Assembly: GCA_963837395.1 (NCBI GenBank)
Contig: CAWINI010000003.1
Span: 430,889-494,888 of the forward strand
From: an uncultured bacterium
GTDB taxonomy: Bacteria; Acidobacteriota; HRBIN11; JAKEFK01
Reading direction: 5' to 3'
Length of the DNA stretch: 64,000 nucleotides
The notes beneath the pieces are model-generated. The model searched no databases and had not been told where the DNA came from. It saw nothing but the letters and a program-made list of their open reading frames with translations. The translations under genes were made by a program, and so were the position numbers. Numbering within the stretch: the stretch's first letter is position 1; the number at the start of each line of letters is the position of its first letter. This document shows, piece after piece, positions 2,245 through 63,064 of this stretch.

Positions 2245-3209
2245 AAGCAATCCGCGTTGAAAAAGTAGGCGGACCTGAAGTATTGCAATTACGAGATGTG
2301 CCGGTGCTTGAACCAGGCAAAGTACAAGCGCGAATTAAGCTCGAAGCAATCGGCGTAAATTTTATTGATGTCTATCATCGAACCGGTTTATATCCACTTC
2401 CATTGCCTTTTATTCCAGGCGGTGAAGGCGCAGGAATTGTTGATGCTATCGGACCGGATGTAACTGAAGTGAAAGTAGGAGATCGTGTTGCATATGCGAT
2501 GGGCACTGCGAGTTATGCAGAATACGTGGTTATGCCTGCATGGAAATTAGTGAAATTACCGGAATGGATGTCAACGCAAGATGCCGCTGCTGTGATGTTG
2601 CAAGGCTTGACTGCTCATTATTTGTTACGCAGCACATATGAAGTAAAAAAAGGGGATCCGATTATGGTTCATGCCGCGGCAGGTGGTGTAGGTTTGTTGA
2701 TGGTTCAAGCGGCAAAACAACTTGGAGCATTTGTAATCGGAACAGTTTCCACTGAAGAAAAAGCGCAAACCGTGCGAGAAGCAGGCGCAGATGAGGTGAT
2801 CTTATATACGAAACAGGATTTCTTAGAAGAAACGAAAAAGATTATGCGTGGCTCTGGAGTTGCTGCAGTTTATGATTCGGTGGGCCAATCAACATTTGAA
2901 CGCAGTCTTGATTGTTTACGACCTAGAGGCATTTTAGTTTTATTCGGACAATCCAGCGGTCCGGTTCTATCGTTTAATCCGTCCGCACTTGCACAAAAAG
3001 GATCGTTATATTTAACACGGCCGAGTCTCGCACATTACATGCTCACGCGAGAAGAATTGATGCAACGAACATCGGAATTATTTGATTGGATTCAATCAGG
3101 CGCAGTAAAACTTCGCATCGATTCCACTTTTCCTTTAGCGAAAGTTGCTGATGCACATCATAAACTCGAAAGCCGGGCCTCCAGCGGTAAGATTCTCCTA
3201 ACTCCCTGA
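2241..3209 (+). CDS. qor: NADPH:quinone oxidoreductase, a zinc-type medium-chain dehydrogenase/reductase.
   Basis: 'MKAIRVEKVGGPEVLQL...GVNFIDVYHRTGLY' and Rossmann motif 'AAAGGVG'. Its ATG overlaps the upstream stop as ATGA. Confidence 0.85.
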   Translation: MKAIRVEKVGGPEVLQLRDVPVLEPGKVQARIKLEAIGVNFIDVYHRTGLYPLPLPFIPGGEGAGIVDAIGPDVTEVKVGDRVAYAMGTASYAEYVVMPAWKLVKLPEWMSTQDAAAVMLQGLTAHYLLRSTYEVKKGDPIMVHAAAGGVGLLMVQAAKQLGAFVIGTVSTEEKAQTVREAGADEVILYTKQDFLEETKKIMRGSGVAAVYDSVGQSTFERSLDCLRPRGILVLFGQSSGPVLSFNPSALAQKGSLYLTRPSLAHYMLTREELMQRTSELFDWIQSGAVKLRIDSTFPLAKVADAHHKLESRASSGKILLTP

Positions 3210-4757
3210 CCGCAAAGGCACAGAGTCTTGAATTTTTGATTGTGGCAGCAGAACGGTTACGGTCGTACCACTCCCTTGTTTACTCTGTACTTCGATGCGG
3301 CCGCCATGTTCTTCAATATTTTTTCTGGCAATCGGGAGTCCTAAACCACTGCCTCCTGATTTTGTAGAAAAATAAGGTTCAAATAATCGCGGAAGAATTT
3401 CCGGCGGCACTCCCTGTCCGCTATCATGAATTCGAGTCCTCACGAACCCATTTGGATCGCGATCAGCTTCCACAATAATTTTGCCCTGACCATTAATGGC
3501 CTGTAATCCATTCTCAATAATATTCATCAACGCACCGCGTAATTTTTCGGGATCTCCTTTTACCGGCGGCAGATCCGGCTCAAACCTGGTTTCAATTTCA
3601 ATCCCTTCAGGCAAATGACTTCCATAGCTATTCACAAGATCTTGAAGAAATTTATCCATACGAATTTCTTCACGATCTAAGATTGATGGTCTACCATATT
3701 GCGAAAAATCAGATACCAGGCGCCGCAGCGCTTTTACCTGTCTTTGAATTGCATCACTACAACTCAAAAGAACTTTTTCAAAATCCGGGGATCGGTCATA
3801 CCACACCCGCATTAAATGTTCGACCGCAAGCTGAATCGGAGTTAGCGGATTTTTAACCTCATGCGCGACCCGCCGCGCCATTTCAGCCCATGCGGAAAGG
3901 CGATTGGAACGGATGATATCGGAAATATCCTCAACCAGCACTACTGCTCCTGTCCATTGTTCGTTATCAAATAGAGGTACATACACCAGCCGGAAGTTCT
4001 GCTCGCGGTTGGTCAAAAAAATTGAGACCTCTTTTATTTGAAAATGTTCAGGGCTTTTAATGAAATCATCCAGAGTACGTTGAATATCGGACAATGGGGC
4101 GTTTATCCCGATTAGATCACTTAGTGGGCCGCGATAATCAGAATCGGCGCCAAACATTTTTATGGCCGATGGATTCATTGTTGTTACATTCATAGTACGA
4201 TCAACAGATATTACACCCGTAGTAATATTGTTGAGAATGTTTTCGATATATGCCCGGCGTTGATCCAGAGTCTGTCGTTGTTCCGCCAGTGAAGCCGCCA
4301 TGGCATTAAATGCTCGAACTACTTGCAAGAATTCGTCGCGATACACCGCAGTAATCCGGTGTTGCAAATTGCCCCTGGCAAATTCTGCTGCACCTTCGAT
4401 CAACACATGCACCGGCCGCGTGAAACGGCTGGCCAGGAACCAACCGAGTAACGCTGAAAGCAAGACCAATCCTGCCCCCGCAAGAACCATGTATTCCTTT
4501 AGCGCATTGATTTCACGTTCCACGCTCCGTTCTTCAATTTGAAATGGAATAGAGATGATCATTTCTTGTTTTACTTTGCCGCGATAAATCCGGCCGCTTA
4601 AATTCAGATATTGAAGATCGCCGATTTGGATCTGTCCTACACTATGTTTTTGTCCGCGCAATGTAAGATCAACATCCGCTTTTCCATCAATCAATTCGCC
4701 CAGGAATCCTGCGTCATATAATTCTTCCCTGCTGGTTGCGATTAAGTCTCTTCGCAA
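3198..4757 (-). CDS. Sensor histidine kinase with TM, HAMP, PAS, HisKA and HATPase_c domains. The true N-terminus may lie upstream and may be joined to ORF 4814..7558.
   Basis: H-box 'AHEVKNPLTPI' and G-boxes 'DSGQGVPPE' and 'GGSGLGLPIARK'. The TTG start in the track is arbitrary and the frame is open upstream to about 4880. Confidence 0.8.
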   Translation of the reverse strand: MRRDLIATSREELYDAGFLGELIDGKADVDLTLRGQKHSVGQIQIGDLQYLNLSGRIYRGKVKQEMIISIPFQIEERSVEREINALKEYMVLAGAGLVLLSALLGWFLASRFTRPVHVLIEGAAEFARGNLQHRITAVYRDEFLQVVRAFNAMAASLAEQRQTLDQRRAYIENILNNITTGVISVDRTMNVTTMNPSAIKMFGADSDYRGPLSDLIGINAPLSDIQRTLDDFIKSPEHFQIKEVSIFLTNREQNFRLVYVPLFDNEQWTGAVVLVEDISDIIRSNRLSAWAEMARRVAHEVKNPLTPIQLAVEHLMRVWYDRSPDFEKVLLSCSDAIQRQVKALRRLVSDFSQYGRPSILDREEIRMDKFLQDLVNSYGSHLPEGIEIETRFEPDLPPVKGDPEKLRGALMNIIENGLQAINGQGKIIVEADRDPNGFVRTRIHDSGQGVPPEILPRLFEPYFSTKSGGSGLGLPIARKNIEEHGGRIEVQSKQGSGTTVTVLLPQSKIQDSVPLRSGS

Positions 4758-4813: not shown

Positions 4814-7558
4814 CTACTGGCGAATCGACCTGCGAAGGGGCTCCCGTCCGTAGAGATATTGAGTAATGGTTTCTGACACAACCGAAAATGAATTCAGCGC
4901 GCGATCGGTAACTTCGGCAGCACGTTTTACATAAATGTAATTCCGGATTAGTGCAGTGAGTGAAAGTAATGGAACGAGTGAGAATAATACAAATGCAATC
5001 AACATTTTCTGGAAGAAACTAAATCGAATCGGAGTTTCTTCCTGGAAGTGAAGTAACAAATACGGTTTAAAGAAGAAGACGAAAGTTAATGTAAACGCAA
5101 GGAGCCAGAAAAAGTTCAGCAGTACAAGACCTATGATTAGAACGAGATGCGAAAGTGCTTTTCGCACAGGCACTGCAAGAGCGGCAAACCCATCCTGAAG
5201 ATGAAAATAATAAACATTAAATCCCTGACCGCTGCAGGTTTGTCGAACCCAGACACTTCCGGTTTGTTCAAGTGCATCTCTAGCACGATCCACTCTTGGC
5301 GAAACATCAGGATCTGATTGATATATGGGATGCCAGAACGAATCATACACATTTAGATCGGGAACGATTGATCCAGGCCGCTCCGGCCGCTGACGAAATA
5401 ATTCCTGAAAAGGACTTTCGGAAGGAACAAAAGTCAAATTTTCATGGTTGGCCATTGCTTCAACCACAAGATAAAAAGAATTATTTACAATACGGACACT
5501 AATCAAAATCGGTTTCTTAATTGTTCCAAATAAGACATTAGCCGATTTCGTATTCCAGTCATTTCCCGCACCACGACCGGTTACATTGATGTTCAATGAA
5601 GGCAAAGCAAGCGAGAAACGGCTTAAAAGTTGTCCATTTAAACTGTACAAGCTGACTGCAGATCGCAAACCCTGCCGCGCCATTTCCGTACGGATCCAAA
5701 GCCGATATGCAAGATCAGGAATGCGGGTATCAAGGGACACCGTACCAACTGCGCGATCGAGATCCTGTAATGAAATGTTCACTGCCTCCTGAACGTGTTT
5801 TCGGATTTCGTAAACTTGTGGCGCTGCAACGCTCTCAATGTATTTCTGTTGAAAATCTTTTGTGTAATGAAATCGGGTGAAATAAAAGACAACGCTGATT
5901 GCGGAACACAAAACTACCGTAATGATAAATCGCGTTAAGAGATTTACGTGTTCAAACCAATTCCAAAGTCCTGGTGTGTAATAAACGAAAAGTGAAATCC
6001 CAAGAAACAATGCTGCTGCTGGAATCAGCGGCATTGAAAAGGAAGGCTGGAAGATAAAGAAAAATGCAGCGAAAGCCGCAATCTGAGTTCCCGCAACTGT
6101 AAGTGCTTTCCATTTTGTTAATGGAAGTTTTCTTATGAAAAACGAAAACAGCAATGAAATTACGACAGTAAATGAAATGTCCAGCCATACTAAACCGAAT
6201 GCAGTAGAAGCTTGTGCAACTTCACCTTCTTCAAAGAAGAATGGCTGAAATCCCATAACGCTTCCGGTGACAAATTCTTTTTGAAGCTTGAAATACGCGA
6301 GAAACAAATATCCAACAAGGAAAGATGAAAGAAATAATGCCGCAATTCGGAAAGCTTTGTTATTGCTTTTCAAATGAAGTTTCAATCTTCGAAACAGCAG
6401 AACTAATGAGAAAACTGCATTCAATGCAAAAAATGAAGTGAAGATTAGATGTCCTGGTGTGTGAAAAATATTTCCATAACCGGCCACATGAAAAACATTT
6501 GTGTTGAACAATGTGCGCGTGCCAAATGTCGAAAATGATCCGAGCGTCAGCACAGAAAGAATTGTGCAACCCAGGAATATCAACCAGTAAGGAACGAGGC
6601 CCGGGCATCCTGGTTGTCCGCAAAAACCAACAAAACTAAATGTCAGAATTATTGTTGTGTAGATGAAGAAGACAAGCGCTAAGCATTCGATCCACCAGTG
6701 CAAATATCGGAATTGAGAAAGCAACATCTTGCCGTAATGTTGTTTGTCATAAACGGCAGAGAGCGAAAATTCATCAGTAATTTTAAAACTCGAAATTTTT
6801 AAGTCAGGCGAGCCTACAGTTGATTCTGTACTGGTGTATAAAAGTCTTGGACGAACAGGTAATCCATCCGTTAAGCGGTTATAAGTGCGCAAATAATAAT
6901 TTTCGACACCGTAATCGGCAGCGATTGGCAACAAGACGGTTACATAATAGAGATCTTCCTTAACACTCATTTCGCGTTTTACTTTCAGGAATTGTTGGTG
7001 CAGATCGTTATAGATGGAAACTTCTTCGGCGCCATAGGCAGGAAAATCTTCGTGGGTGCGTGGTTGACCCCGCCATGTTAGGAGTCGTCCTTCACGATAT
7101 ACGCCCCACCAGTAATCAACATCTCCAAATTTTTGCTGTAGCCGGATTTGGATTTGACCGGGATTCATGCCCGCAGTGCCGCGTAGTTCGTCTTGTATTG
7201 AAGTGAGCCGATCACGAGCTTGCTGCAAAAAGCGAGTAGTGCGTTCCTGTACTACTTTTGTACTGCGATCAACTTCACGTTGAAAATTTGCTTCAGAATA
7301 ATTGTGGTAAGCAACGAGCTGAAAGAATTCAACCAACAGAAGAATGGTGATTGAGAACCAGAGCAGCGCAACACCATAACGAGGTCTACCTTCAATAACC
7401 TTGAGCAGTAGTGGAATTACTGCAATAAAAAGAAGGGCAGCTAAGAAAAGGGCAACAGCATGAGTATGAACCTGCGGTTCTATCCGCATCCAGAGGTAAA
7501 GGAGTAGAAACGGTACGACGATAAAGCAGCGCTTTATTTCCGGGGACAGCCATTTCAT
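4814..7558 (-). CDS. Large polytopic membrane protein (about 14 TM segments plus two soluble loops). It is probably the sensor module of the adjacent histidine kinase.
   Basis: Many hydrophobic segments in a 914-aa ORF. It sits directly upstream and co-oriented with HK ORF 3198..4757, whose open frame overlaps its 3' end. Confidence 0.55.
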   Translation of the reverse strand: MKWLSPEIKRCFIVVPFLLLYLWMRIEPQVHTHAVALFLAALLFIAVIPLLLKVIEGRPRYGVALLWFSITILLLVEFFQLVAYHNYSEANFQREVDRSTKVVQERTTRFLQQARDRLTSIQDELRGTAGMNPGQIQIRLQQKFGDVDYWWGVYREGRLLTWRGQPRTHEDFPAYGAEEVSIYNDLHQQFLKVKREMSVKEDLYYVTVLLPIAADYGVENYYLRTYNRLTDGLPVRPRLLYTSTESTVGSPDLKISSFKITDEFSLSAVYDKQHYGKMLLSQFRYLHWWIECLALVFFIYTTIILTFSFVGFCGQPGCPGLVPYWLIFLGCTILSVLTLGSFSTFGTRTLFNTNVFHVAGYGNIFHTPGHLIFTSFFALNAVFSLVLLFRRLKLHLKSNNKAFRIAALFLSSFLVGYLFLAYFKLQKEFVTGSVMGFQPFFFEEGEVAQASTAFGLVWLDISFTVVISLLFSFFIRKLPLTKWKALTVAGTQIAAFAAFFFIFQPSFSMPLIPAAALFLGISLFVYYTPGLWNWFEHVNLLTRFIITVVLCSAISVVFYFTRFHYTKDFQQKYIESVAAPQVYEIRKHVQEAVNISLQDLDRAVGTVSLDTRIPDLAYRLWIRTEMARQGLRSAVSLYSLNGQLLSRFSLALPSLNINVTGRGAGNDWNTKSANVLFGTIKKPILISVRIVNNSFYLVVEAMANHENLTFVPSESPFQELFRQRPERPGSIVPDLNVYDSFWHPIYQSDPDVSPRVDRARDALEQTGSVWVRQTCSGQGFNVYYFHLQDGFAALAVPVRKALSHLVLIIGLVLLNFFWLLAFTLTFVFFFKPYLLLHFQEETPIRFSFFQKMLIAFVLFSLVPLLSLTALIRNYIYVKRAAEVTDRALNSFSVVSETITQYLYGREPLRRSIRQ

Positions 7559-7767: not shown

Positions 7768-8964
7768 ATGGATTCTATGAACTTTTCAGAGCGCGCAAAA
7801 CGGATGGAACCTTCCGCTATCCGTGCAATGTCGAAACTTGCTGCTGCCGCTGGCCCTGAGTTGATCTCGCTTGCTGGAGGAATGCCCGATCCTGCTACAT
7901 TTCCTTTGGACCGGCTTGCTGAAGTAGCTGCATCTGAAATCCGCGATCATTATGGCAAAAGCCTTCAATACGGCCAGACTGCAGGATTTCGTCCGTTGCT
8001 GGATTGGATTTGTCGCTATATTGCGCGTTACAAGGTCCAATCTTCACCCGAAAATGTCATGTGTGCCACAGGATCGCAACAAGCATTGGACCTGATTACC
8101 GATGTGATGATCGATCCAGGCGATTTGATATTTGTGGAGTCGCCCACTTACATCGGCGCTTTGATCGTTTTCCGAAAAAGTGGCGGTGTAATGGTTGCGA
8201 TTCGTCAAGACAACGATGGAGTTGTTGTTGAAGATCTTGAAGAAAAACTTCGATCCGCTCCGCAAAATAAAAAGAAGCTGATTTACTTAATCAGCAATTT
8301 TCAAAATCCTTCCGGTGTCAGCATTACAGCTGAAAGACGGGCACGTGTTGCCGAAGTTGTGGAACGTTATGGGGCTTATTTGATTGAAGATGATCCTTAC
8401 GGTGAAATTTATTTTGATGAAATACCTCCCGATCCGATTGCAAGCATAATTCCAGATCGGACATTTTATCTGGGTACATTTTCGAAAATTGTGGCGCCAA
8501 CGTTTCGCACCGGATTCATTTCTGCACCGGAATCATTCACACGAAAATTTGAACTAGCGAAAGAAACATCGGACTTATGCAGCTCTTTGTTGGATCAAAG
8601 AATTTTGATGCGATTCTGTGCATCACCGGAATTTCCAGAACATCTACAGAAATTGCGATTGTTTTATTCAGAAAGAGGGCAAACCATTCAGAGTGCTCTG
8701 AGTGAAAATATGCCGCAGACTTTAACGTGGACTCATCCTACCGGCGGATTTTTTGTCTGGATGCGCCTGCCTGAAACTCTAGATTCAGAAAGTTTTCTGG
8801 AAGAAGCAGTCAGCAAGGAAAAAGTATCCTATTTAATAGGCAGACCATTCACCTGCGATCATTCGGCCCGGAATTATTTGCGGCTTGCGTTTTCAGCTGA
8901 ACCACCCGATCGCATTCGCGAAGCCGTCAGACGCCTCGCGACCGTAATCAAACGCAGAATATAA
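7768..8964 (+). CDS. PLP-dependent aminotransferase, class I/II (AAT/LysN-like).
   Basis: N-terminal 'ERAKRMEPSAIRAMSKL', 'LAGGMPDP', and Lys-containing 'TFSKIVAPTFRTGF'. Confidence 0.8.
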   Translation: MDSMNFSERAKRMEPSAIRAMSKLAAAAGPELISLAGGMPDPATFPLDRLAEVAASEIRDHYGKSLQYGQTAGFRPLLDWICRYIARYKVQSSPENVMCATGSQQALDLITDVMIDPGDLIFVESPTYIGALIVFRKSGGVMVAIRQDNDGVVVEDLEEKLRSAPQNKKKLIYLISNFQNPSGVSITAERRARVAEVVERYGAYLIEDDPYGEIYFDEIPPDPIASIIPDRTFYLGTFSKIVAPTFRTGFISAPESFTRKFELAKETSDLCSSLLDQRILMRFCASPEFPEHLQKLRLFYSERGQTIQSALSENMPQTLTWTHPTGGFFVWMRLPETLDSESFLEEAVSKEKVSYLIGRPFTCDHSARNYLRLAFSAEPPDRIREAVRRLATVIKRRI

Positions 8965-8973
8965 CCACGAAGG

Positions 8974-9198
8974 TTAAATTCCTACGAATAGCGGATCAAC
9001 GATTTCCCCTGCTTTAAACACACGTACATTGCCATCAACCATGAATTCATATTCGCGATCTTGATCTGTAATCGTCTTTCCTTTCGTTACTTCGCGAACA
9101 TATTTTCCGCGAATAGTTTCTCCGGTTGTTTTAAGACGGAAGCGATAAATACGCACCGGTTGAAATGGATCGAAACTCCAAACGTTCCCGGCGTACAT
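8974..9198 (-). CDS. Hypothetical small protein. It is in the same frame as ORF 9202..9429 and separated from it by a single TAA.
   Basis: ORF track. An in-frame stop at 9202-9204 lies one codon upstream of its ATG. Confidence 0.4.
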   Translation of the reverse strand: MYAGNVWSFDPFQPVRIYRFRLKTTGETIRGKYVREVTKGKTITDQDREYEFMVDGNVRVFKAGEIVDPLFVGI

Positions 9199-9201
9199 GG
9201 C

Positions 9202-9429
9202 TTACCTTCTCAACATCGGTTCTAGATTTTCTTCGGTTACAGTCATCAACGAATAGATGGATGGTTGAAGACATTCATCATGCACCGGAATTGTCATTCC
9301 TTTGGTGAGGTGCAAATACGCTCCCCAACGAGGTACGCAGTTTGGAACTTCTGCTTGATGTTTTTGAAACCGGTAGTTACCACTCACCGGTGCGATATCA
9401 CCTGATTTGAAAAGCTGCTTCTCTTTCAT
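9202..9429 (-). CDS. Hypothetical small protein, possibly the N-terminal half of an interrupted gene that continues in 8974..9198.
   Basis: Same frame as the downstream ORF. Confidence 0.4.
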   Translation of the reverse strand: MKEKQLFKSGDIAPVSGNYRFQKHQAEVPNCVPRWGAYLHLTKGMTIPVHDECLQPSIYSLMTVTEENLEPMLRR

Positions 9430-9508
9430 TTCTTTGTACCTACCTCCCCCTTCATAAGTTGGAGATACTTAAGATCAACATTCACATTTAGCTTTGACCT
9501 TCTGATCA

Positions 9509-11026
9509 CTACGAGCTCCGTGTTTGCGTCTGTGTCTGTGTTTGAGTCTGAGTCTGTGACTGTGATTCTAACATAGGCTCAGTTTCCGCTTCAGGCTCCT
9601 CTTCGGTTTGCGTTTGAATCTGCGTCTGCGTTTGCGTTTGTGTCTGCGTTTGCGTTTGTGTCTGAGTCTGCGTTTGCGATTGCGTGGCCTCAGTTTCCGG
9701 AGGTGGAGGCGGCTGTCGTGTCAGACAGACTAAGTGTCCATCGTTCAAACCAAGAAACAAACGATCATTCGCCGTCATTGGCGCAGAACGGATACGAACG
9801 CCGGCATTGAAGTCTCCAACTCGTAAGCCTGTGTGTGGATCAAATCCTAAAACTACAGTTCCAAATGGAGCAAGAAATATGAGTGCACGATCAAAATGCA
9901 TTCGATTGTAAACGCGAGACAATGTCGGACTCAACCATGTATGCCCACCATTTTTGATTTTGAAACTGTAAAGGAAATTATCGAATGAAGATGTAATAAC
10001 GTCTTCAACACGATTCAATCTTTCATTCTTATAAAACATCGGCACACCGCGAATCGCTGCACCAGTTTTATACTTCCAATACTGTATTCCTGTTTCAGGA
10101 TCTAATCGATAAAATGTTCCATCTTCGGTTCCAAAGAAAACACCTTCCGGACCAGCAATTGGTGAACCTTGAATTTCAGCACCTGCAACAAATTTCCATT
10201 TAACAAATCCCGCTTGAGTATCAACCGCGTAGAGCGTTTTATCATTGCAACCTACGAAAACTTTTTTGTTGTACACCCATGGTGAAGTCATACAAGGCGC
10301 ATCAATTTTAAAACGCCATCCGGGATCGCCTGTCTTTGCATTAATGCTGACGATAGATCCTTTCTGGCTAACAAAATACAAATTCTTTTCATCTGCCATC
10401 GGACGTGTCATGAAACTTTCACCATCAAATTGTTTTCGCCAATAAGCTTTTCCCGTGTCTGCTGAAATCGCGAAAATTTTTCCACCAGTCGTTCCAACAA
10501 ACAAAGCACGATTAATCAAAATAAACGCTTCTTCAATTCCATCACCTACATTCGCACGCCATACAGCCTGGCCATTTTCCTGACTCACCCGATGGATTCC
10601 GCCGGTTTTACTTGCGACATAAACAGTTGATTCATCCGTTTGTGGCTGAGCAACCAAAGGTGCAGGCGTTTTGTATTTCCAGCCCAACTGTAATGGAAAA
10701 CCAATGTAAAGATACTGCGATTGTGGCTGTGTTTGAGTTTGGGTCTGGGTTTGGGTTTGGGTCTGTGTTTGCGTTTGAGTTTGTGTTTGAGTTCGCGAAG
10801 TTTGAGTAGGTTTCGTTTGAGCCAGAACTTGCGCAAGGAGCTTAGCGCCAACAGATTCATCAACCGTAGGGTTTTGAAAAAACTCAGGCTCTGAATGATC
10901 CTTGTGCTGAATCAATTGGACAATTCGCTGAGACGCACGTACGGTGAGATTCAAATAAAGGCCGGATAATACTAGCGTCAGTACGATCAGTAACTTGTTG
11001 AGCTTCATAACTCGAATTCTTGCCAT
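9509..11026 (-). CDS. Exported PQQ-repeat beta-propeller protein flanked by (TQ)n low-complexity tracts. An alternative start at 11008 overlaps the upstream stop as ATGA.
   Basis: Repeated 'G.I.A.D..TG...W..' motifs such as 'GKIFAISADTGKAYWRKQF', 'LYAVDTQAGFVKWKF' and 'FYRLDPETGIQYWKY'. Signal-like N-terminus. TQTQTQ runs at both ends. Confidence 0.75.
   Translation of the reverse strand: MARIRVMKLNKLLIVLTLVLSGLYLNLTVRASQRIVQLIQHKDHSEPEFFQNPTVDESVGAKLLAQVLAQTKPTQTSRTQTQTQTQTQTQTQTQTQTQTQPQSQYLYIGFPLQLGWKYKTPAPLVAQPQTDESTVYVASKTGGIHRVSQENGQAVWRANVGDGIEEAFILINRALFVGTTGGKIFAISADTGKAYWRKQFDGESFMTRPMADEKNLYFVSQKGSIVSINAKTGDPGWRFKIDAPCMTSPWVYNKKVFVGCNDKTLYAVDTQAGFVKWKFVAGAEIQGSPIAGPEGVFFGTEDGTFYRLDPETGIQYWKYKTGAAIRGVPMFYKNERLNRVEDVITSSFDNFLYSFKIKNGGHTWLSPTLSRVYNRMHFDRALIFLAPFGTVVLGFDPHTGLRVGDFNAGVRIRSAPMTANDRLFLGLNDGHLVCLTRQPPPPPETEATQSQTQTQTQTQTQTQTQTQTQIQTQTEEEPEAETEPMLESQSQTQTQTQTQTQTRSS
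9510..9700 (-). repeat. Hexanucleotide-period coding repeat (ACN-CAR)n encoding the C-terminal (TQ)n/(QT)n tracts.
   Basis: Plus-strand text reads gtytgngtytgn... (for example gtttgcgtctgtgtctgtgtttgagtctgag). Confidence 0.8.
10725..10800 (-). repeat. Hexanucleotide-period coding repeat encoding the N-terminal (TQ)n tract.
   Basis: gtttgggtctgggtttgggtttgggtctgtgtttgcgtttgag. Confidence 0.8.
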
Positions 11027-11913
11027 TCCTTAGCAACGTGATAAGACGTTTTTGAAAAGCTTTTAGCTTCATCAGTATCCGGATCAAGCAACGGATTGGT
11101 ATGATTTAAATGCGTAAAAAAAATCTGAGACTTCAGTTGCGGAATTGAATTCAGGAATTCAATTGAATTCTGAATTGTAGGATGTGGTACAAGCCGGATA
11201 TTGCGTCCTGGCAATTCATCACCGGAGTAGAACGTCCCATCGAGCAAAGCGTACGTACTTTTTGATAACCAATCTGTGATTTGAGTGCGCACCGGATCCC
11301 AGGAATCAATATCGGGAATATACAACAGCGAATTGCGCGAACCTTGAATCAGAAAGCCATGAGTATCGGTAAATTCTTTGCGATGCGGAACGGCGAGTGG
11401 AGTGATGCTCAATGATCCAATTTGCACTGGCTTTCCGGATTCAAATGTGTGCAATTCAATATTTCCATTAGAGGCAAGTAAACTCCAGGGCGCATTCCGG
11501 GTTAAGTAGTCGGACATTTCAGCGCTACACCATACCGGAACTTTCTTTGTGGAAATTGACTCTTTACCCAGGTAAAGCAAGCCAGTGTAATGTCCCATAT
11601 GTGCGTGAGTCAACAAAATTCCGTCCAACAAATTCGGACGCACTGTCTGCGGAAACCTTCGCGTTAATTCCGCATATTGTTCACGAAGGTCAGGCGTAGC
11701 ATCGATCAAAACCAGCGAATTCTGATCCACCAGTGCCAGCGAACTAACAAAATGTTTTTGTGTTTTACAAATCTTCTGCGTGCATCCGATTTGCGGAATT
11801 CCTCCATCCTGCGCGATCCCGAGGACGATTGCCTTGGGCAAAGGTCCTGGAACAATTGCAAAGATCAACAGGGCCAGGAACCCTACTGCGCAATATGCCG
11901 TTTGTGTTTGCAT
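11005..11913 (-). CDS. PqqB-like metallo-beta-lactamase-fold hydrolase with a signal peptide.
   Basis: 'VLGIAQDGGIPQIGCTQKIC' resembles PqqB 'VLGSAAGGGFPQWNCNC..C'. 'LLTHAHMGHYTGLL' is an MBL His motif. Hydrophobic N-terminus. Confidence 0.65.
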   Translation of the reverse strand: MQTQTAYCAVGFLALLIFAIVPGPLPKAIVLGIAQDGGIPQIGCTQKICKTQKHFVSSLALVDQNSLVLIDATPDLREQYAELTRRFPQTVRPNLLDGILLTHAHMGHYTGLLYLGKESISTKKVPVWCSAEMSDYLTRNAPWSLLASNGNIELHTFESGKPVQIGSLSITPLAVPHRKEFTDTHGFLIQGSRNSLLYIPDIDSWDPVRTQITDWLSKSTYALLDGTFYSGDELPGRNIRLVPHPTIQNSIEFLNSIPQLKSQIFFTHLNHTNPLLDPDTDEAKSFSKTSYHVAKEWQEFEL

Positions 11914-11950
11914 TTATTTTCACTCATAATTCGATCGACAGAATAATAAG

Positions 11951-12727
11951 ATGATAAGAAGAATATTCCTAGCAGCGGGAGTATTGGCCTTACTTCTCAG
12001 TTTAGTTTGGTCGGCTATTTTAATATCGAACTCGATAAAAGAGAAACGCGTCTCCGACCGTTGGGCTAAGGAATTTGTATCGCTAGAATCATTTCCTGAT
12101 CGGTTTCCAACCACGAAAACAAATCAATCAGCATTAGAACTCGAAAAACTTTCGGCGCAGCTTGGGATTGAATTGGCTCCAAAATATGCCGCCAATCGGA
12201 TCCGTCCTTCAATTGCGCAACAAAAAGCATATAAAGCCCTAAGTAAAGAAATAAAGGCTCTTCTAAATAAAAGACTAAGTGATGGAATTTCAACCGATTT
12301 CAAAATTTCAGATGAATTACAAAAGTTTCTCGCAACAAACGAAAATAAATTGAATGAAATCGTTGAGTATGTTCTTCATCATGAAGTTCCTTTATGGGAT
12401 ATAGATCTTACGAAACATGTCAACGCTCCAATTCCCAATCTTCTGGGCCATATTGCTCTTCAATATCTTCTTAACCTCCGAGCTTCCCTTCTTTTTCAGC
12501 AATCTCGAATAACTGAGGCACAAGAGACTCTGGAAGCCTCTTGGAAAATTAACCAGCAATTACTTCAACGGCCGGAGATGATGAGCTATCTGGTTGGAGT
12601 TAACATACTAAGAGTTCAATCCGGCAATGTACGTCAAGTTCCAGTTGGATATACCACCTGGCATCCACGGCTAGTCGATTCCAAAATCCATGATCAACTC
12701 TGGACTGTAATGGAAGCTGACGTTTAG
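11951..12727 (+). CDS. Hypothetical membrane-anchored or secreted protein.
   Basis: N-terminal TM 'IFLAAGVLALLLSLVWSAILI'. No recognisable motif. Confidence 0.5.
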   Translation: MIRRIFLAAGVLALLLSLVWSAILISNSIKEKRVSDRWAKEFVSLESFPDRFPTTKTNQSALELEKLSAQLGIELAPKYAANRIRPSIAQQKAYKALSKEIKALLNKRLSDGISTDFKISDELQKFLATNENKLNEIVEYVLHHEVPLWDIDLTKHVNAPIPNLLGHIALQYLLNLRASLLFQQSRITEAQETLEASWKINQQLLQRPEMMSYLVGVNILRVQSGNVRQVPVGYTTWHPRLVDSKIHDQLWTVMEADV

Positions 12728-12750
12728 GCTTGTAAAAGGAGCGAGAGAAG

Positions 12751-13248
12751 GTGTTCTTTTCGATGCGGGGAGCGAAAAAGCCCACCGTCATGGACAAAAC
12801 TTTGAGTCCTTACTTTCGAAGTATGATTCTTAATTATGCCGAAGTAATGCTCCAATTCATTACCGATTTGAAGACGCGCGATCCTTGCTCTCCAAAAAAA
12901 GTAATAAAAGACTACGACGAAATCAAAAAGGTTTTCCCCAAATGGAACCGAATCGGCCCTGTTGCATTTTGGGATCCTGGAGGGTGGTGGAATCGCGAGG
13001 CGCGTCTTCGTGTAGATTTAGAACTTACGGACAAAATCTTACAAATAAAAGAAGAACTCAAGAAAACAAATTCATTAAAAAACAACGAAACTTTTAAGTC
13101 AGAGATTTGTCCTGGTCAAACTTGGAACTATGCCAATGAAAGCAATTCGTGCACGATTTCTTTTTCCAAAAAGGTTGACTGGTCGAAAGTAGACGAAATT
13201 CCCGAAGGCACCCTAATTCTTCCGCTTACATACAAATCGCCGCAATAG
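12751..13248 (+). CDS. Hypothetical protein.
   Basis: ORF track. Co-oriented 23 bp after the previous ORF. Confidence 0.45.
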   Translation: MFFSMRGAKKPTVMDKTLSPYFRSMILNYAEVMLQFITDLKTRDPCSPKKVIKDYDEIKKVFPKWNRIGPVAFWDPGGWWNREARLRVDLELTDKILQIKEELKKTNSLKNNETFKSEICPGQTWNYANESNSCTISFSKKVDWSKVDEIPEGTLILPLTYKSPQ

Positions 13249-13304
13249 ATTTTTTGTAATTGCGCGAAAGATGCCCGCGCTCATCCATATTTACGTTTTA
13301 CGTT

Positions 13305-13928
13305 TCACTTTTTTTCTTTTTCCCGGATCCGTTCTTGCCGGAAGTAAAAGCGGGTTTTTACTTCTTTTTGTTCGAAGTACAAAAAATCGAAATCAAGTTT
13401 GAAATCTAGAGCTTTTTGGGGAAGTGGAGGGAATAACAAAAATTTGCTTATCACATCGCCGTGTTTAATGATTTCCGGCGAATGGAAAATTGCTTTCTCC
13501 AGAATTTTGCGTTCATTCGCACTAAAGACTTCCAGTATGCTAAGCAAAGTTGAATATTCCAGCGGAAAAGAGGCTTCGGTTCCAATACGGATTGTGATCA
13601 TTCCCGGTGTGAAAGTGGCGTTCCCATTGGTTCGATTAAAAATCGTCACCAGAAAAATAGTGGGGTTCTCAAATTCTTGTTGCAAAAACGGATTGCCAAT
13701 CCAGCCAGCGCCGCGTTCTCCGAAATAATTCGCGGCCTCGTCTCCCCTGACGGCCTTCATAATAATGCCCGCATTTCCGCTGCGGAAGTGGATTTCCTCC
13801 TGATTCACCACTTCGTAACCTTCATGTTCCACCGGATGGATCCAGAACGAATCGGCCCAAGCACTATAGTACGACGATAATAGTATTATTAGTATAGTGA
13901 CAGCGCTCAGGCTGTAGCTTTTTGACAT
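13305..13928 (-). CDS. Hypothetical secreted protein.
   Basis: Signal-like 'LSAVTILIILLSSYYSAWA'. Confidence 0.5.
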   Translation of the reverse strand: MSKSYSLSAVTILIILLSSYYSAWADSFWIHPVEHEGYEVVNQEEIHFRSGNAGIIMKAVRGDEAANYFGERGAGWIGNPFLQQEFENPTIFLVTIFNRTNGNATFTPGMITIRIGTEASFPLEYSTLLSILEVFSANERKILEKAIFHSPEIIKHGDVISKFLLFPPLPQKALDFKLDFDFLYFEQKEVKTRFYFRQERIREKEKK

Positions 13929-15040
13929 ACAAAAATCATATCCAGCGAAAGTTGGGGAAGAACTCTACCGAGCCGGTTAAACATTTTCATTAGCGGAACA
14001 TATTTTTGTTGATTCCATTCCGCCTGTAAATAATCACGCCGCGGATTTCCACTCAGCCAGTTTAACAGTACCTCCACATAAATTCCTGTGCTAACCACAA
14101 CTTTAAATCCGGACTTGGGAAGCACTTCATCGCGAAGTTCTTTATAAGACAACTCGTGCAAATGATCGGGCGAATAAGGACGTTCCCTGCCTTCAATTCT
14201 GGACAACAATCGTTCGCGATTTGGAGTCGTTAAGATCAGCATCCCTCCTGGCTTTAATATCCGCTTCCATTCTTCCAGCGCAAGTGCGGGATCGTTTACA
14301 TGTTCAATGATTTCGCCAACGAATAATGCATCAAAATATTCACTTCGAAATGGAACATGCAAAACATCGGAAATAAACCAGTAATTCTGCGGCACTTCCG
14401 CTTTCCGTTCCTTAATCAGGCCCGGATCTAGATCACCGGCAAAAATCTTGAATGGCCAATTCGGTTGAATATCAGTAAACAAACAGCGTCCGCAGCCAAG
14501 ATCCAACGCATTGCCGCCAGTGGGAATATGACGCGTAAATAATTTCTTCAAAACATCCAGCTTGTAGTAATGCATTGTTGGAAGAAACGGCAGAGGTGTT
14601 CCGTAACCGCCGGCGGCGTGTAAGCGCGCATAAAATTGCTTGAGTACTTGAGGATCATCAATTTTCATGATCACGTGTTCAAGCTGTTCAATCTTCATCG
14701 CACCATCACGAAGCACCAATTGAAGGTCCTGGAGCGGATCAAACAGATACGATGGATTCACCCAATACTCGCCACTGGAAATTTTGTTTCCATCCACGAT
14801 CATTTTTACTGAATATTGATCGATGGTTCGGAAGTCTACATGAACTTGAATCAGCCGCTTGCCGGGTGGAAGCTGAAATGACCACCAACCTAAGTGTGTT
14901 TCTGGATGTTCCTGGCGCAGATAGGAATAAATATCAACCGTAAACACGTGCGGCTTCTGGCGGAAATCCAACTCCACCGGAACTGCACCTTGAAATTCAT
15001 TCAGGCGAAAACTTCGCGTGAGTGGCGTTAATGTTTTCAT
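13907..15040 (-). CDS. Class I SAM-dependent methyltransferase with an uncharacterised N-terminal domain.
   Basis: Motif I 'ALDLGCGRCLF' and post-I 'GGMLILTTPN'. Confidence 0.7.
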   Translation of the reverse strand: MKTLTPLTRSFRLNEFQGAVPVELDFRQKPHVFTVDIYSYLRQEHPETHLGWWSFQLPPGKRLIQVHVDFRTIDQYSVKMIVDGNKISSGEYWVNPSYLFDPLQDLQLVLRDGAMKIEQLEHVIMKIDDPQVLKQFYARLHAAGGYGTPLPFLPTMHYYKLDVLKKLFTRHIPTGGNALDLGCGRCLFTDIQPNWPFKIFAGDLDPGLIKERKAEVPQNYWFISDVLHVPFRSEYFDALFVGEIIEHVNDPALALEEWKRILKPGGMLILTTPNRERLLSRIEGRERPYSPDHLHELSYKELRDEVLPKSGFKVVVSTGIYVEVLLNWLSGNPRRDYLQAEWNQQKYVPLMKMFNRLGRVLPQLSLDMIFVCQKATA

Positions 15041-15073
15041 CAGTACAAAATCACGGAGGGATAACCAACTGCC

Positions 15074-15313
15074 TTAGCCGAGCAGCTCGTAAATTTTTTC
15101 CCGCGCCTCCGGGTTCGTATAATAACCATCTTCGGAACGTCGCGGACCTGGAACGACCTTCAAAAAATCACGTGCAAGCATTCCTTCAACAAATACTTCC
15201 ACATCTTTTGGTGAAAAATTCAAACCACGAGCGATTTCTTCCACCGTAGTTTTATGACGCTGGCTCCGGATAAATCGGAGAATTTCAATTTCTTTCTGAC
15301 TTAGTTCTTCCAT
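15074..15313 (-). CDS. Small winged-helix-like DNA-binding protein (hypothetical).
   Basis: 79 aa with 'TTVEEIARGLNFSPKDVEVFVEGMLARDFLKV', which is HTH-like. Confidence 0.4.
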   Translation of the reverse strand: MEELSQKEIEILRFIRSQRHKTTVEEIARGLNFSPKDVEVFVEGMLARDFLKVVPGPRRSEDGYYTNPEAREKIYELLG

Positions 15314-15385
15314 TGTGAGTCTAATTTTGAACAGGACATTCTAGCATAGGTCTCAGCGTCTCAGTGGTCAAAATCCAAATTTTTG

Positions 15386-15414
15386 TTGACAAATTGTCGA
15401 GATTTTGCTACATA
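15386..15414 (+). promoter_or_regulatory. Sigma70-like promoter candidate (TTGACA, 17 bp spacer, TACATA) upstream of the M23 peptidase gene.
   Basis: Perfect -35 at 15386-15391 and a -10-like hexamer at 15409-15414. ATG at 15427. Confidence 0.4.
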
Positions 15415-31044: not shown

Positions 31045-31377
31045 ATTTTGGGATGTACACAAAGTTCTCGTTTTAAACAACGTTAATTTATCGGAATATT
31101 TTTGGGTAATTGCCTTAGGCAAAGGGTTGCCATCACAATGGTGGCTCCGTGAAAGCCTCGGATTTTTGTTAGTCGGCTTTTACATTCTGGTGCTTCCAGT
31201 TTTGCTGGCAAAAACAATCTTCAAACGGTTTTACGTAAAGATGGGACCGGCAAGATTTTACATCGGTGTTTTTTTATTTTTAGCGATGTTTGCATTACCG
31301 CTAAAAATGTATTTACGCTGGCTATTTAACTTGAAGTACATAATCGCTATACCGGAGGCCTTCTTTAATATATAGAA

Positions 31378-31465
31378 AATCGTAATCTTACTCTTACTCG
31401 TACTCGTAATCGGAAAAAACGAATCGAGTAAGAGTAAGAGTAAGAGTACGATTACGAGTACGATT
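31378..31465 (+). repeat. Hexamer-repeat hairpin element, copy A. AATCGTA-(CTYNTA)n, loop, (TAAGAG/TACGAG)n-TACGATT, ending 2 nt before the ATG at 31468.
   Basis: Left arm aatcgtaatcttactcttactcgtactcgtaatcg, loop gaaaaaac, right arm gaatcgagtaagagtaagagtaagagtacgattacgagtacgatt. Confidence 0.8.
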
Positions 31466-31467
31466 TT

Positions 31468-36245: not shown

Positions 36246-37646
36246 GTGGATCCTGTACTTCGGATGTTGCGAACCGGATCCTATGATTTCATGAATTATG
36301 AATACGGTGGTGTGTATTTTTATGTACTCGCCATCGCTTTCATCCTGATGATTTTTCGCAGCATCTCCCACTTCTGGCATCGCGATATAAGTGAGATTCC
36401 GGAAGTCGCATATTACACTGCCGGACGAATGATAACTGCATTTTTGAGTCTTGCTATAGTTGCATGCACCTACGGAATCGCACGGAAATATTTCGGAAAG
36501 ATTCCGGCAATTGCCGCAAGTTTTATTCTGACGTTTTCTGCCCTTTCGTTTACTGTTGCACATGAGGTACGACTGGATTTCGCTCTTGCTTTATGGATTC
36601 TGCTGGCACACTGGTTCTTTTTGCGAATGCTGGATGAGCCTTCAACGTTGAATTACGCAGTTGCAGGAATCTTTTGTGGACTCGCCATGGGCACGAAATA
36701 CACAGTTGTCACGATCTTCATCCCATTTCTGATTACGCATGCGCTTTCAAAAAAAGGAAAATGGTTTGATTGGAATTTGCTGCTCGGTCTTTTTTGCGGC
36801 TTAGCAATTTACATACTGACCAACCTCTATGCTTTAATCCATCTCAACACCTTTCTGATCCGATTGTCTATTGCTGTCTATCACAATCTCAATCCACTGC
36901 ACTGGAGTCATACTTCCAATCGCGCTTTTGAATACACCATTATTTTGATCAGGGAGGGAATCGGACTGGCAGCTCTAATCACAGCATTGATCACTCTCCC
37001 CCGCATTTTTTCGAGGCCCGGCTTTGCGGAGGTTGCGCGGACGCCTCGAGGCCCGGCATTGCGGTGGCAGGGTGCGAAAGCCGGGCCTCAGATCGTTTAT
37101 TACTTCTTTCGGACCTTCCCTCTTCTGCATTTACTATTTCTCGGTTCCTATCCATCCGGCTTTGCACGTTACATAATTCCAATCCTGCCTTTATTAGCCA
37201 TTCTTGCCGGCGAAGGAGTACGAATTATTGTGGAATGGATCAAGATCAAAGCAAAAATGGAGCCGCGCACAAATAAGTTCGTGGCAACCGCAGTACTTGC
37301 TTTATTAGTTGTATACCCTGCGTGGAGCGCTTATCGATATTATGCTGAACTCGCAAAAGCACTCTCACCGAAAGAAGTTATTACATGGATTCAAAAGAAT
37401 ATTCCGGAAGGTTCAACAATTCTGATTGATCCTACAGGACCCGTCGTTCCTTCGAATCACTATAAGGTCACTTCGCTGAACTATGCTCAATTCAAGGAAA
37501 CAAGAAGCGTTAAAGGTTTTGACTACGTTTGTGTAACAGAAGATTTGTTTAAGCGCGTCCCTCGCTCCTATGAAGTACTGCACGAATTCCCATCGCGCAC
37601 GAAAGCACTGGATCGTGCGGTGCGAATCTACAAGGCTGTCGAGTGA
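36246..37646 (+). CDS. Polytopic membrane protein, GT39/ArnT-like, carrying a GC-rich in-frame insertion near 37012-37091.
   Basis: At least 10 TM segments. The family assignment is weak. Insert 'SRPGFAEVARTPRGPALRWQGAKAGPQ' is encoded by a palindromic GC-rich element. Confidence 0.45.
   Translation: MDPVLRMLRTGSYDFMNYEYGGVYFYVLAIAFILMIFRSISHFWHRDISEIPEVAYYTAGRMITAFLSLAIVACTYGIARKYFGKIPAIAASFILTFSALSFTVAHEVRLDFALALWILLAHWFFLRMLDEPSTLNYAVAGIFCGLAMGTKYTVVTIFIPFLITHALSKKGKWFDWNLLLGLFCGLAIYILTNLYALIHLNTFLIRLSIAVYHNLNPLHWSHTSNRAFEYTIILIREGIGLAALITALITLPRIFSRPGFAEVARTPRGPALRWQGAKAGPQIVYYFFRTFPLLHLLFLGSYPSGFARYIIPILPLLAILAGEGVRIIVEWIKIKAKMEPRTNKFVATAVLALLVVYPAWSAYRYYAELAKALSPKEVITWIQKNIPEGSTILIDPTGPVVPSNHYKVTSLNYAQFKETRSVKGFDYVCVTEDLFKRVPRSYEVLHEFPSRTKALDRAVRIYKAVE
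37012..37091. repeat. GC-rich palindromic element inside a CDS (cgaggcccggc, cgaggcccggc, gccgggcctc).
   Basis: The local GC is far above the surrounding CDS. There is a direct repeat plus an inverted copy, with a similar motif after folB at 56692..56735. Confidence 0.7.
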
Positions 37647-42935: not shown

Positions 42936-42981
42936 AGGATCTTTGCAACTTTAATAATGCGAATTCGTCTGTTTAAATAAT

Positions 42982-43060
42982 AATCGTACTCAAACTCGTA
43001 CTCTTAATCTTACTCGGAGGATTACGAGTACGAGTACGATTACGAGTACGAGTACGAGTA
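42982..43060 (+). repeat. Hexamer-repeat hairpin element, copy B, ending 7 nt before the ATG at 43068.
   Basis: aatcgtactcaaactcgtactcttaatcttactcg, loop gagg, attacgagtacgagtacgattacgagtacgagtacgagta. Confidence 0.8.
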
Positions 43061-62978: not shown

Positions 62979-63062
62979 AATCGTACTCTTACTCTTACTC
63001 TTACTCTTACTCGTACTCTCAATCTAGCTTTCGATTACGATTAAGAGTAAGAGTACGAGTAT
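62979..63062 (-). repeat. Hexamer-repeat hairpin element, copy C. It fills the intergenic gap and, in minus sense, ends ...GAGTACGATT-ATG.
   Basis: aatcgtactcttactcttactcttactcttactcgtactctcaatc, loop tagctttc, gattacgattaagagtaagagtacgagtatg. Confidence 0.8.
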
Positions 63063-63064
63063 GA

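Follow-up and report, generated by a model that had tools for sequence, protein, structure and literature searches.

The closest described relatives of the two proteins considered here are PqqB, the PhnP-family phosphodiesterases, and the outer-membrane-protein assembly factor BamB. PqqB (TIGR02108; structures 1XTO, 3JXP, 4Z5Y, 4Z7R, and 6E13) has a fold of the metallo-beta-lactamase (MBL) type and is defined by a zinc finger formed by C19, C21, and C24 with N272, by a GSAAGGG stretch, and by the cavity residues H93 and H269 (PMC2294125). It is a cytoplasmic protein, and the biosynthesis of pyrroloquinoline quinone (PQQ) likewise handles the PqqA peptide in the cytoplasm. PhnP is also cytoplasmic and is encoded in phn operons. 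BamB, or YfgL (TIGR03300; 3Q7M, 4XGA), is a lipoprotein that, like YxaL (7DXN) and 3HXJ, is an exported propeller of about 340 residues composed of PQQ-like repeats and lacking a cofactor site. The BamB propeller has eight blades and docks on POTRA3 of BamA. Here, we compare these systems with a locus from an uncultured bacterium of the Acidobacteriota. The analyzed stretch of 64,000 nt (contig CAWINI010000003.1, positions 430,889 to 494,888), hereafter the window, contains an interval, 9509-11913, that according to the listing of open reading frames (ORFs) is filled by two minus-strand ORFs, one for an MBL protein of 302 amino acids (aa) and one for a beta-propeller protein of 505 aa. An earlier note, made from the sequence alone, had described them as an exported PqqB-like hydrolase coupled to a PQQ-repeat propeller that is bracketed by slippage-prone Thr-Gln (TQ) repeats. 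Coordinates below are those of the window, and the genes and their parts lie on the minus strand unless marked otherwise.

Our preferred reading, with a probability of about 55%, is that the two genes encode an enzyme-scaffold pair of the periplasm or envelope, equipped with flexible spacers, at the core of an envelope gene cluster specific to this lineage. The folds are known, and the locus combines them in a variant specific to the clade. Both ORFs proved to be real genes. The MBL gene occupies 11005..11913 and was assigned using Pfam, NCBIfam, the PDB, and an AlphaFold (AF2) model. The propeller ORF spans 9509..11026, its 505 aa being counted from an alternative ATG at 11026. An in-frame ATG at 11008 is the likelier start, because the orthologues begin with MK(R/K/L)N, and yields an exported BamB/PQQ_2-type propeller protein of 499 aa (9509..11008; Pfam, NCBIfam, and the core of the AF2 model). 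As had been proposed, the TGA stop codon of the MBL gene (11007-11005) overlaps this ATG (11008-11006), forming an ATGA junction at 11005..11008 that can be read directly in the sequence. The overlap itself is not kept in relatives and tight linkage is, with gaps of 11 nt in locus L002 and 87 nt in locus L003.

The coupling of the two genes suggested by the earlier note is conserved. In the window and in 14 out of 14 related loci, the MBL gene immediately precedes the propeller gene and shares its strand; these loci were reached from the MBL side (L001-L003), from the propeller side (L083-L090), and by further look-ups (L091-L093). From the MBL side, the propeller gene was found immediately downstream in three of 82 loci, namely L001 (91% identity), L002 (72%), and L003 (63%). 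From the propeller side, the MBL gene was directly upstream on the same strand in all eight metagenome loci, and the further look-ups, with MBL identities of 59-66%, gave the same gene order. The pairing holds down to approximately 58% identity of the MBL proteins and 40% identity of the propellers.

On sequence grounds, the MBL protein is not PqqB, and belongs to a large uncharacterised exported family that is sister to PqqB and PhnP. It matches PF12706 (Lactamase_B_2) at 2e-29, with 102.9 bits against a gathering cut-off of 27, and this match together with the conserved His and Asp residues places it in the metallo-beta-lactamase fold superfamily, with the motif-2 Asp replaced by Gly. The description "PqqB-like" is apt in that PqqB is the best match by three measures: in NCBIfam (TIGR02108, 1.2e-34), where the PhnP and RNase Z models trail far behind; by sequence in the PDB, where the PqqB crystal structures align end to end (E ~1e-11); and by fold. 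The AF2 model, built on 36 homologues with a predicted local distance difference test score (pLDDT) of 92, retrieves PqqB structures 4Z7R, 6E13, and 4Z5Y at the top of the Foldseek matches (template modelling (TM) scores of 0.75-0.77, E ~1e-20). Although the fold is of the same type and the alignment covers about 300 residues, identity to PqqB is only 22-25%, and the TIGR02108 score, 120.2 bits, is half the family cut-off of 245. The next-best fold matches are the PhnP-family phosphodiesterases (3G1P, 6B9V; TM to target 0.76-0.79). With them the MBL protein shares the HxHx-H cluster of His residues seen in hydrolytic MBLs, and both fall in the MBL subgroup with a Cys-rich zinc site at the N-terminus. 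In contrast to PhnP, it has Gly in place of the canonical motif-2 Asp, shows an identity of 17-21%, and scores 43 bits against the TIGR03307 cut-off of 272.

The metal motif H103-A-H105-M-G107-H108 (HxHxGH; 11590..11607) was located by homologue alignment. Across 36 diverse homologues, H103, H105, G107, H108, H177, D201, H244, H268, and H271 are invariant, so that all seven metal-binding His residues on which the proposed assignment depended are present. The invariant Gly stands where the canonical HxHxDH motif has Asp. Residues Q35-D36 are also invariant in the exported HxHxGH family. The C44-x4-C49 motif (11767..11784) takes the place that the CxCxxC zinc finger has in PqqB, and each of its Cys residues is at least 90% conserved in the same 36 homologues. 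In the alignment with PqqB, C19 corresponds to C44, C21 to Q46, C24 to C49, and N272 to H271; the protein thus has Cx4C plus His where PqqB has CxCxxC plus Asn, in a Cys-containing N-terminal loop at a similar position. The PqqB cavity residues H93 and H269 align with H108 and H268, whereas D92 is replaced by the invariant Gly, the PqqB motif DxQxDH (D-S-Q-I-D-H) by HxHxGH, and the GSAAGGG stretch by GIAQDGG.

Judging from its N-terminus and from those of its homologues, the MBL protein is almost certainly exported. The putative hydrophobic export signal comprises aa 1-27 (MQTQTAYCAVGFLALLIFAIVPGPLPK; 11833..11913), as delimited by hydropathy and homologue comparison. These 27 aa extend the protein beyond the N-terminal limit of its alignment with PqqB, which itself has about five residues ahead of the aligned core. 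Hydropathy peaks at a Kyte-Doolittle mean of 3.0 over 11 residues, and a TAA stop codon directly precedes the ATG on its 5' side. Of 118 MBL homologues in which the core motif is present, 113 are extended at the N-terminus by 12 aa or more (median 30), and 93 of these 113 contain a strongly hydrophobic 11-mer in the extension, in agreement with the signal peptide predicted earlier. A twin-arginine (Tat) motif RRxFL is present in 16 of the 118, and Lys or Arg occurs within the first eight residues in 98. We also considered alternative starts of the MBL gene at internal TTG codons, which would drop the signal; they were rejected, as the extension is conserved in relatives as a typical signal.

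The type of signal varies together with the Cys motif. Among homologues P0001-P0120, the Tat motif was found in 12 of the 14 proteins with CxCxxC, the remaining two of which look N-terminally truncated, and no Tat motif was found in 94 of the 98 proteins with Cx4C. Both Cys residues have been lost in six homologues. If Tat exported a zinc finger already assembled in the cytoplasm, and the general secretory (Sec) route exported the two-Cys variant, the pattern would be coherent. The tracking of signal type by the Cys motif therefore speaks for export as a genuine, built-in trait of this family.

This family is large and widespread. A word-indexed protein search with the MBL sequence gave 7,736 significant matches among 8,000 scored candidates, and relatives are present in at least 595 species, as counted with one genome per species and two family-specific peptide patterns. 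Among the matches listed, the family is found in Acidobacteriota, Aminicenantes, Bacteroidota, Planctomycetota, Gemmatimonadota, Calditrichota, Myxococcota, and a few Proteobacteria. The source databases label its members as "MBL fold metallo-hydrolase" or "PqqB", and JGI calls many of them PqqB. In the literature on "PqqB-like" or exported PqqB proteins we found nothing relevant to bacteria.

The sequence matches and the model of the second protein indicate that it is a cofactor-less scaffold of the BamB/PQQ_2 type, neither a quinoprotein nor a canonical BamB. It matches PQQ_2 (PF13360) at 1.7e-32 and Beta-prop_ACSF4 at 6e-43. Its predicted signal peptide, MKLNKLLIVLTLVLSGLYLNLTVRA (10934..11008), was identified by reading the sequence; it has a hydrophobic maximum of 2.7, no lipobox Cys, and a likely cleavage site VRA|S, and the orthologues keep a signal-peptidase-I-type site of the form ...LNLNA(R/K/T)(A/T)S. 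The mature protein begins with a segment of roughly 45 residues, conserved in the orthologue alignment (10793..10933), that contains R-I-V..L, P-x-F-F, and a short helix, VGAKLLAQVLAQT, the helix being predicted by AF2 with low confidence at residues 53-63. The propeller core follows the N-terminal spacer and extends from YLYIGFP to LVCLTR (9716..10714); its length is about 333-340 residues, and with about 29 strands predicted by AF2 it is probably eight-bladed. The core is closed by a PPPPP stalk (9698..9712) within the motif (C)LTRxPPPPPE, which nearly all orthologues share. In the AF2 model, pLDDT exceeds 90 for residues 100-320 and 390-437, whereas both spacer regions stay near 30. Among natural proteins, those closest in fold are BamB (TM to target 0.74-0.78, identity 15-18%, E ~1e-19) and YxaL, and the designed eight-blade protein Cake8 reaches a TM score of 0.83. 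An exhaustive profile search with the propeller alignment recovered 98,595 generic relatives, dominated by giant multi-propeller proteins. Of the 150 best-scoring cluster representatives, just four were matched over the whole length in one stretch; therefore, the orthologous group of the propeller is narrow. Two metagenomic proteins, P0146 and P0148, consist of a PQQ_2-type propeller fused to a calcineurin-like metallophosphoesterase domain (PF00149, PF12850). They may serve as a loose analogy for a hydrolase working together with a propeller.

Three TQ tracts flank the propeller core, all defined from the sequence and by Tandem Repeats Finder (TRF). The N-terminal spacer (10715..10792) consists of 11 TQ units followed by PQ and SQ. 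On the C-terminal side, spacer C1 (9608..9685) has 13 XQ units (TQ, SQ, nine TQ, IQ, and TQ), and spacer C2 (9524..9565) has seven (two SQ and five TQ), after which the protein ends with TRSS and the stop codon. The two are separated by an acidic spacer, TEEEPEAETEPMLE (9566..9607), and acidic stretches are also found here in orthologues. Of the unit numbers given in the earlier note, the N-terminal count of about 11 stands, while the C-terminal runs are two and not three, and the counts of 9, 14, and 10 have no counterpart. The remainder of the window has no TQ tract in any frame.

The hexanucleotide repeats described as perfect in the same note are far from perfect. TRF reports a period of 6 with 79-82% matches, and the longest stretch that is perfectly periodic at this period is 17 nt. 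The tracts of 13, 13, and seven units contain eight, six, and five distinct hexamers, respectively, and together draw on the full set of four Thr and two Gln codons. Adjacent TQ hexamers are identical in three of 22 cases, compared with 3.15 expected (probability 0.143 per pair) from the Thr and Gln codon frequencies of 26 long ORFs of the window. Since the codons of the tracts are scrambled to chance level, the hexanucleotide periodicity is what the TQ peptide imposes, and no more. The same scrambling was seen in all nine gene copies analyzed, that is, in the window and in eight orthologues. The only clean DNA repeat is an 18-nt block that is tandemly duplicated in C1 (41 nt perfect at period 18).

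Linker length does vary between relatives. Every full-length orthologue has [TSP]Q tracts at similar positions with differing unit numbers, and the common architecture includes a signal peptide, an N-terminal segment, a [T/S/P]Q tract, LYIGFP, the propeller, (C)LTRxPPPPPE, and an acidic or TQ tail. The most deviant orthologue, P0127, has PPPKPE and only a degenerate N-terminal tract. Compared with the 91%-identical L001, the three tract lengths differ by 3, 3, and 1 units; C1 is three units longer in the window, and its 18-nt duplication corresponds to these extra units. In L003 (6910-8490), the N-terminal tract has 28 XQ units with a 54-nt block exactly repeated at a distance of 66 nt, and the C-terminal tract has six perfect ACTCAA units. 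In L093 (4943-6476), the propeller gene is split by a frameshift inside the N-terminal TQ tract into products of 139 and 391 aa; the gene may be truly disrupted, or this low-complexity sequence may have been misassembled. L003 shows that now and then several units are duplicated at once, which lengthens the tracts. The tracts bear the marks of disordered linkers that are selected for composition at the protein level and drift through occasional gains and losses of units, and not those of hypermutable DNA; the length differences between relatives are ordinary indel drift of low-complexity sequence. Compositionally biased linkers of variable length are known from glycoside hydrolases, where they are Pro/Thr-rich, and from TonB with its Pro-rich spacer. 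These, too, are disordered spacers flanking a folded domain of an exported protein, whereas the tracts described here show strict alternation of Thr and Gln. In the searchable literature we found no bacterial TQ repeat or Thr-Gln-alternating linker, TQ clusters being mentioned only as sites of the eukaryotic ATM/ATR kinases.

The pair is embedded in a conserved gene order, which consists of a 79-aa ORF, a methyltransferase, a secreted 207-aa protein, the MBL protein, the propeller, and a 75-aa protein, followed by an aminotransferase and a large histidine kinase. The gene for the 207-aa protein, the upstream partner of the MBL gene recognized by synteny (13305..13928), is directly upstream of it in L002, L003, L083, L086, L087, L089, and L090; in L092 this position is taken by a 197-aa gene. 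In L002, L003, and L092 this upstream gene overlaps or abuts the MBL gene. The 207-aa protein had no family match in Pfam or NCBIfam and no sequence match in the PDB. The 75-aa protein (9202..9429), also identified by synteny on the 3' side of the propeller gene, has no signal peptide. Its homologues (59-92% identity by BLASTP, six loci), or genes of 75-77 aa at the same place, were found in L001, L002, L003, L083, L086, L088, and L091-L093, and it had no match in Pfam, NCBIfam, or PADLOC. The first large gene of the cluster (13907..15040) encodes a class I S-adenosylmethionine-dependent methyltransferase (Methyltransf_11 at 2e-17) with an unassigned N-terminal domain, and its synteny is kept in L001-L003, L083, L088, L090, and L092.

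The names of the families matched by both proteins invite the view that the MBL protein is a genuine exported PqqB that makes or handles PQQ for an adjacent quinoprotein propeller. Besides the top rank of PqqB by NCBIfam, PDB sequence, and fold, the PqqB labels given to many homologues by JGI and the match of the propeller to Pfam and NCBIfam "PQQ" repeat models point in this direction. Nevertheless, we consider it extremely unlikely. The PqqB score does not reach the cut-off, the PqqB-defining features are altered (Cx4C plus His, GIAQDGG, and Gly for D92), and the protein is predicted to be exported whereas PQQ biosynthesis deals with PqqA in the cytoplasm. The family occurs in its many phyla without pqq neighbours, and no pqq gene context was seen at the MBL gene here. 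The earlier statement that pqqACDE genes are absent holds for pqqC and pqqE: among 50 scanned window ORFs of at least 150 aa there was no PqqC, PqqE, radical-SAM protein, or PQQ dehydrogenase, three further ORFs of this size being unscanned and ORFs of the size of PqqA and PqqD lying outside the scan. The propeller does not support a PQQ function either. A quinoprotein would have a propeller of about 550-600 residues reaching the cut-offs of the dehydrogenase models TIGR03075 and TIGR03074; the core found here has about 333 residues and scores 53.5 bits against 480 and 16 bits against 833, respectively, and quinoproteins in the PDB match only short stretches of it (E ~2e-7 to 7e-4). The PQQ theme implied by the earlier note is nominal, a coincidence of names, with no demonstrable PQQ part. 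The BamB-like fold suggests a different explanation, namely that the propeller is the BamB orthologue of this lineage and that the MBL protein is a mere neighbour or an accessory of envelope biogenesis. BamB gives the best natural fold matches and a TIGR03300 match at 4e-40, the protein is exported, and a gene for an M23 peptidoglycan peptidase is located nearby. However, the TIGR03300 score is 137.6 bits against a cut-off of 285.2, and NF008351 gives 91.9 bits against 423. The N-terminus, MKLNKLLIVLTLVLSGLYLNLTVRASQ, contains no Cys and thus lacks the lipobox that would be expected of a lipoprotein such as BamB. The propeller has its own N-terminal segment, as well as TQ spacers, a PPPPP stalk, and an acidic tail that BamB lacks. 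By sequence, it is matched equally well or better by archaeal and Gram-positive PQQ_2 propellers (3HXJ, YxaL), the generic relatives are very numerous with few end-to-end matches, and strict operon linkage to the MBL protein and to the secreted 207-aa protein does not resemble the setting of a BamB gene. We regard this explanation as improbable.

The TQ tracts allow two further explanations. They could constitute a contingency locus, in which slippage rapidly varies linker length within populations. This would be consistent with the differences of all three tracts from those of L001, with the perfect tandem duplication in C1, with the perfect units and the repeated block in L003, and with the frameshift in L093. 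On the other hand, the periodicity is imperfect, and identical neighbouring units are no more frequent than expected from random choice among synonymous codons, in the window as well as in all orthologues analyzed. The slippage-prone character attributed to the tracts is therefore not supported. Moreover, a 6-nt unit within a coding region is gained or lost in frame, so that on/off switching is impossible; the unit differences arose alongside about 8-11% amino-acid divergence; and an assembly error is an equally likely cause of the L093 frameshift. A contingency locus is thus very unlikely. The other possibility is that the tracts are O-glycosylated, forming rigidified mucin-like stalks rather than plain flexible spacers. 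They are rich in Thr and Ser, disordered, and located in an exported protein; Thr or Ser comes first in nearly every unit of the orthologues; and the window encodes a PMT_2/GT39-family glycosyltransferase resembling protein O-mannosyltransferases at 36246-37646 (+). This gene, however, is 25 kb away and unlinked, and Pro, Ile, Met, Asn, Ala, and Lys replace Thr in orthologues. In addition, we know of no bacterial O-glycosylation sequon that corresponds to TQ. Glycosylated stalks therefore seem unlikely.

As an envelope enzyme-scaffold pair, the MBL protein and the propeller would both act in the periplasm or envelope. The propeller may serve as a binding platform, with the TQ, PPPPP, and acidic segments acting as flexible tethers and setting its reach. 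The MBL protein would be a metal-dependent hydrolase; because the His cluster is retained and the protein is akin to PhnP, a PhnP-like phosphodiesterase is the default guess. The TQ tracts would be kept by selection on composition and on a range of lengths, and would not be a switching device at the DNA level. Several observations weigh against this reading. No propeller gene adjoins the MBL gene in any of the 79 distant loci (40-48% identity), and in ORF clustering of the 82 loci these 79 showed no conserved neighbour, only antisense shadows of the MBL ORF recurring; therefore, the MBL protein needs no propeller to work. The export signal of the MBL protein in the window has no basic n-region, and its c-region, PGPLPK, makes a poor cleavage site, so that the signal may be an uncleaved membrane anchor. 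An invariant Gly at the Asp position of HxHxDH is unusual for MBL hydrolases, which makes hydrolysis, and phosphodiesterase activity in particular, a guess. PqqB, the nearest characterised relative, is reportedly an iron-dependent hydroxylase and not a hydrolase. In the propeller model, residues 324-382 are of low confidence. A broader scenario can be put forward only tentatively. In it, the exported HxHxGH family, often mislabelled as PqqB, would be a catalytically distinct class of periplasmic metalloenzymes, whose Cys motif co-evolved with the Tat or Sec route and which in one lineage recruited a propeller on TQ tethers and the 207-aa protein to form an envelope machine.

An opposite-strand gene between the 207-aa and MBL genes (11951..13248, +) is present only in the window and in L001 and is absent from this position in L002, L003, L083, L086, L087, L089, L090, and L092. 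It is a single 431-aa ORF in L001, and by comparison the window copy (11951-12727 and 12751-13248) is broken by a G-to-A change creating TAG and by a 2-nt deletion. From these comparisons, the gene is a lineage-specific insertion and not part of the ancestral cluster, and its window copy appears to be decaying or mis-assembled. In L001 and L002 a single gene of 1453-1473 aa encodes the HAMP/PAS/HisKA histidine kinase; the window has two ORFs in its place, 3198-4757 and 4814-7558 (both on the minus strand; 519 and 914 aa), in different frames, owing either to a frameshift or to a sequencing indel. Taken together, the split kinase and the broken inserted gene suggest that indel errors or pseudogenisation are possible in this assembly. 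At the head of the cluster, the 79-aa ORF (15074-15313) resembles a winged-helix (helix-turn-helix-like) protein, its counterpart in L002 having a weak MarR_2 match; it is a possible local regulator. In a promoter and terminator scan of 8800-15400, the counts were not above those in shuffled controls, and an Rfam scan of the window gave no match. The PADLOC defence models matched none of the MBL, propeller, 207-aa, 75-aa, and 74-aa proteins and gave only a generic methyltransferase match for the methyltransferase. Elsewhere in the window, there are three intergenic elements (31376-31467, 42981-43060, and 62976-63068), in each of which a (TACTCK)n tract precedes (MGAGTA)n, its reverse complement. 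The elements make imperfect hairpins (arms of 30-42 nt, 81-93% complementarity), adjoin gene starts or ends (31468, 43068, and 62978/63065), and look like a family of repeated palindromic elements.

The TQ repeats provide a useful negative example, in which a slippery-looking hexanucleotide periodicity is explained by a dipeptide repeat with scrambled codons. The implications of the MBL family are wider. Thousands of proteins routinely annotated as "PqqB" are predicted to be exported, have another metal motif, and occur without pqq context; therefore, genome-based inferences of PQQ biosynthesis that rest on this label are unsafe. The family appears to be an abundant periplasmic MBL-fold enzyme, and its Cys motifs, paired with Tat or Sec signals, illustrate on a small scale but clearly how the evolution of a cofactor site follows the route of export. 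For finding the partner or substrate of this enzyme, the operon specific to the clade, with its TQ-tethered propeller, offers a starting point.

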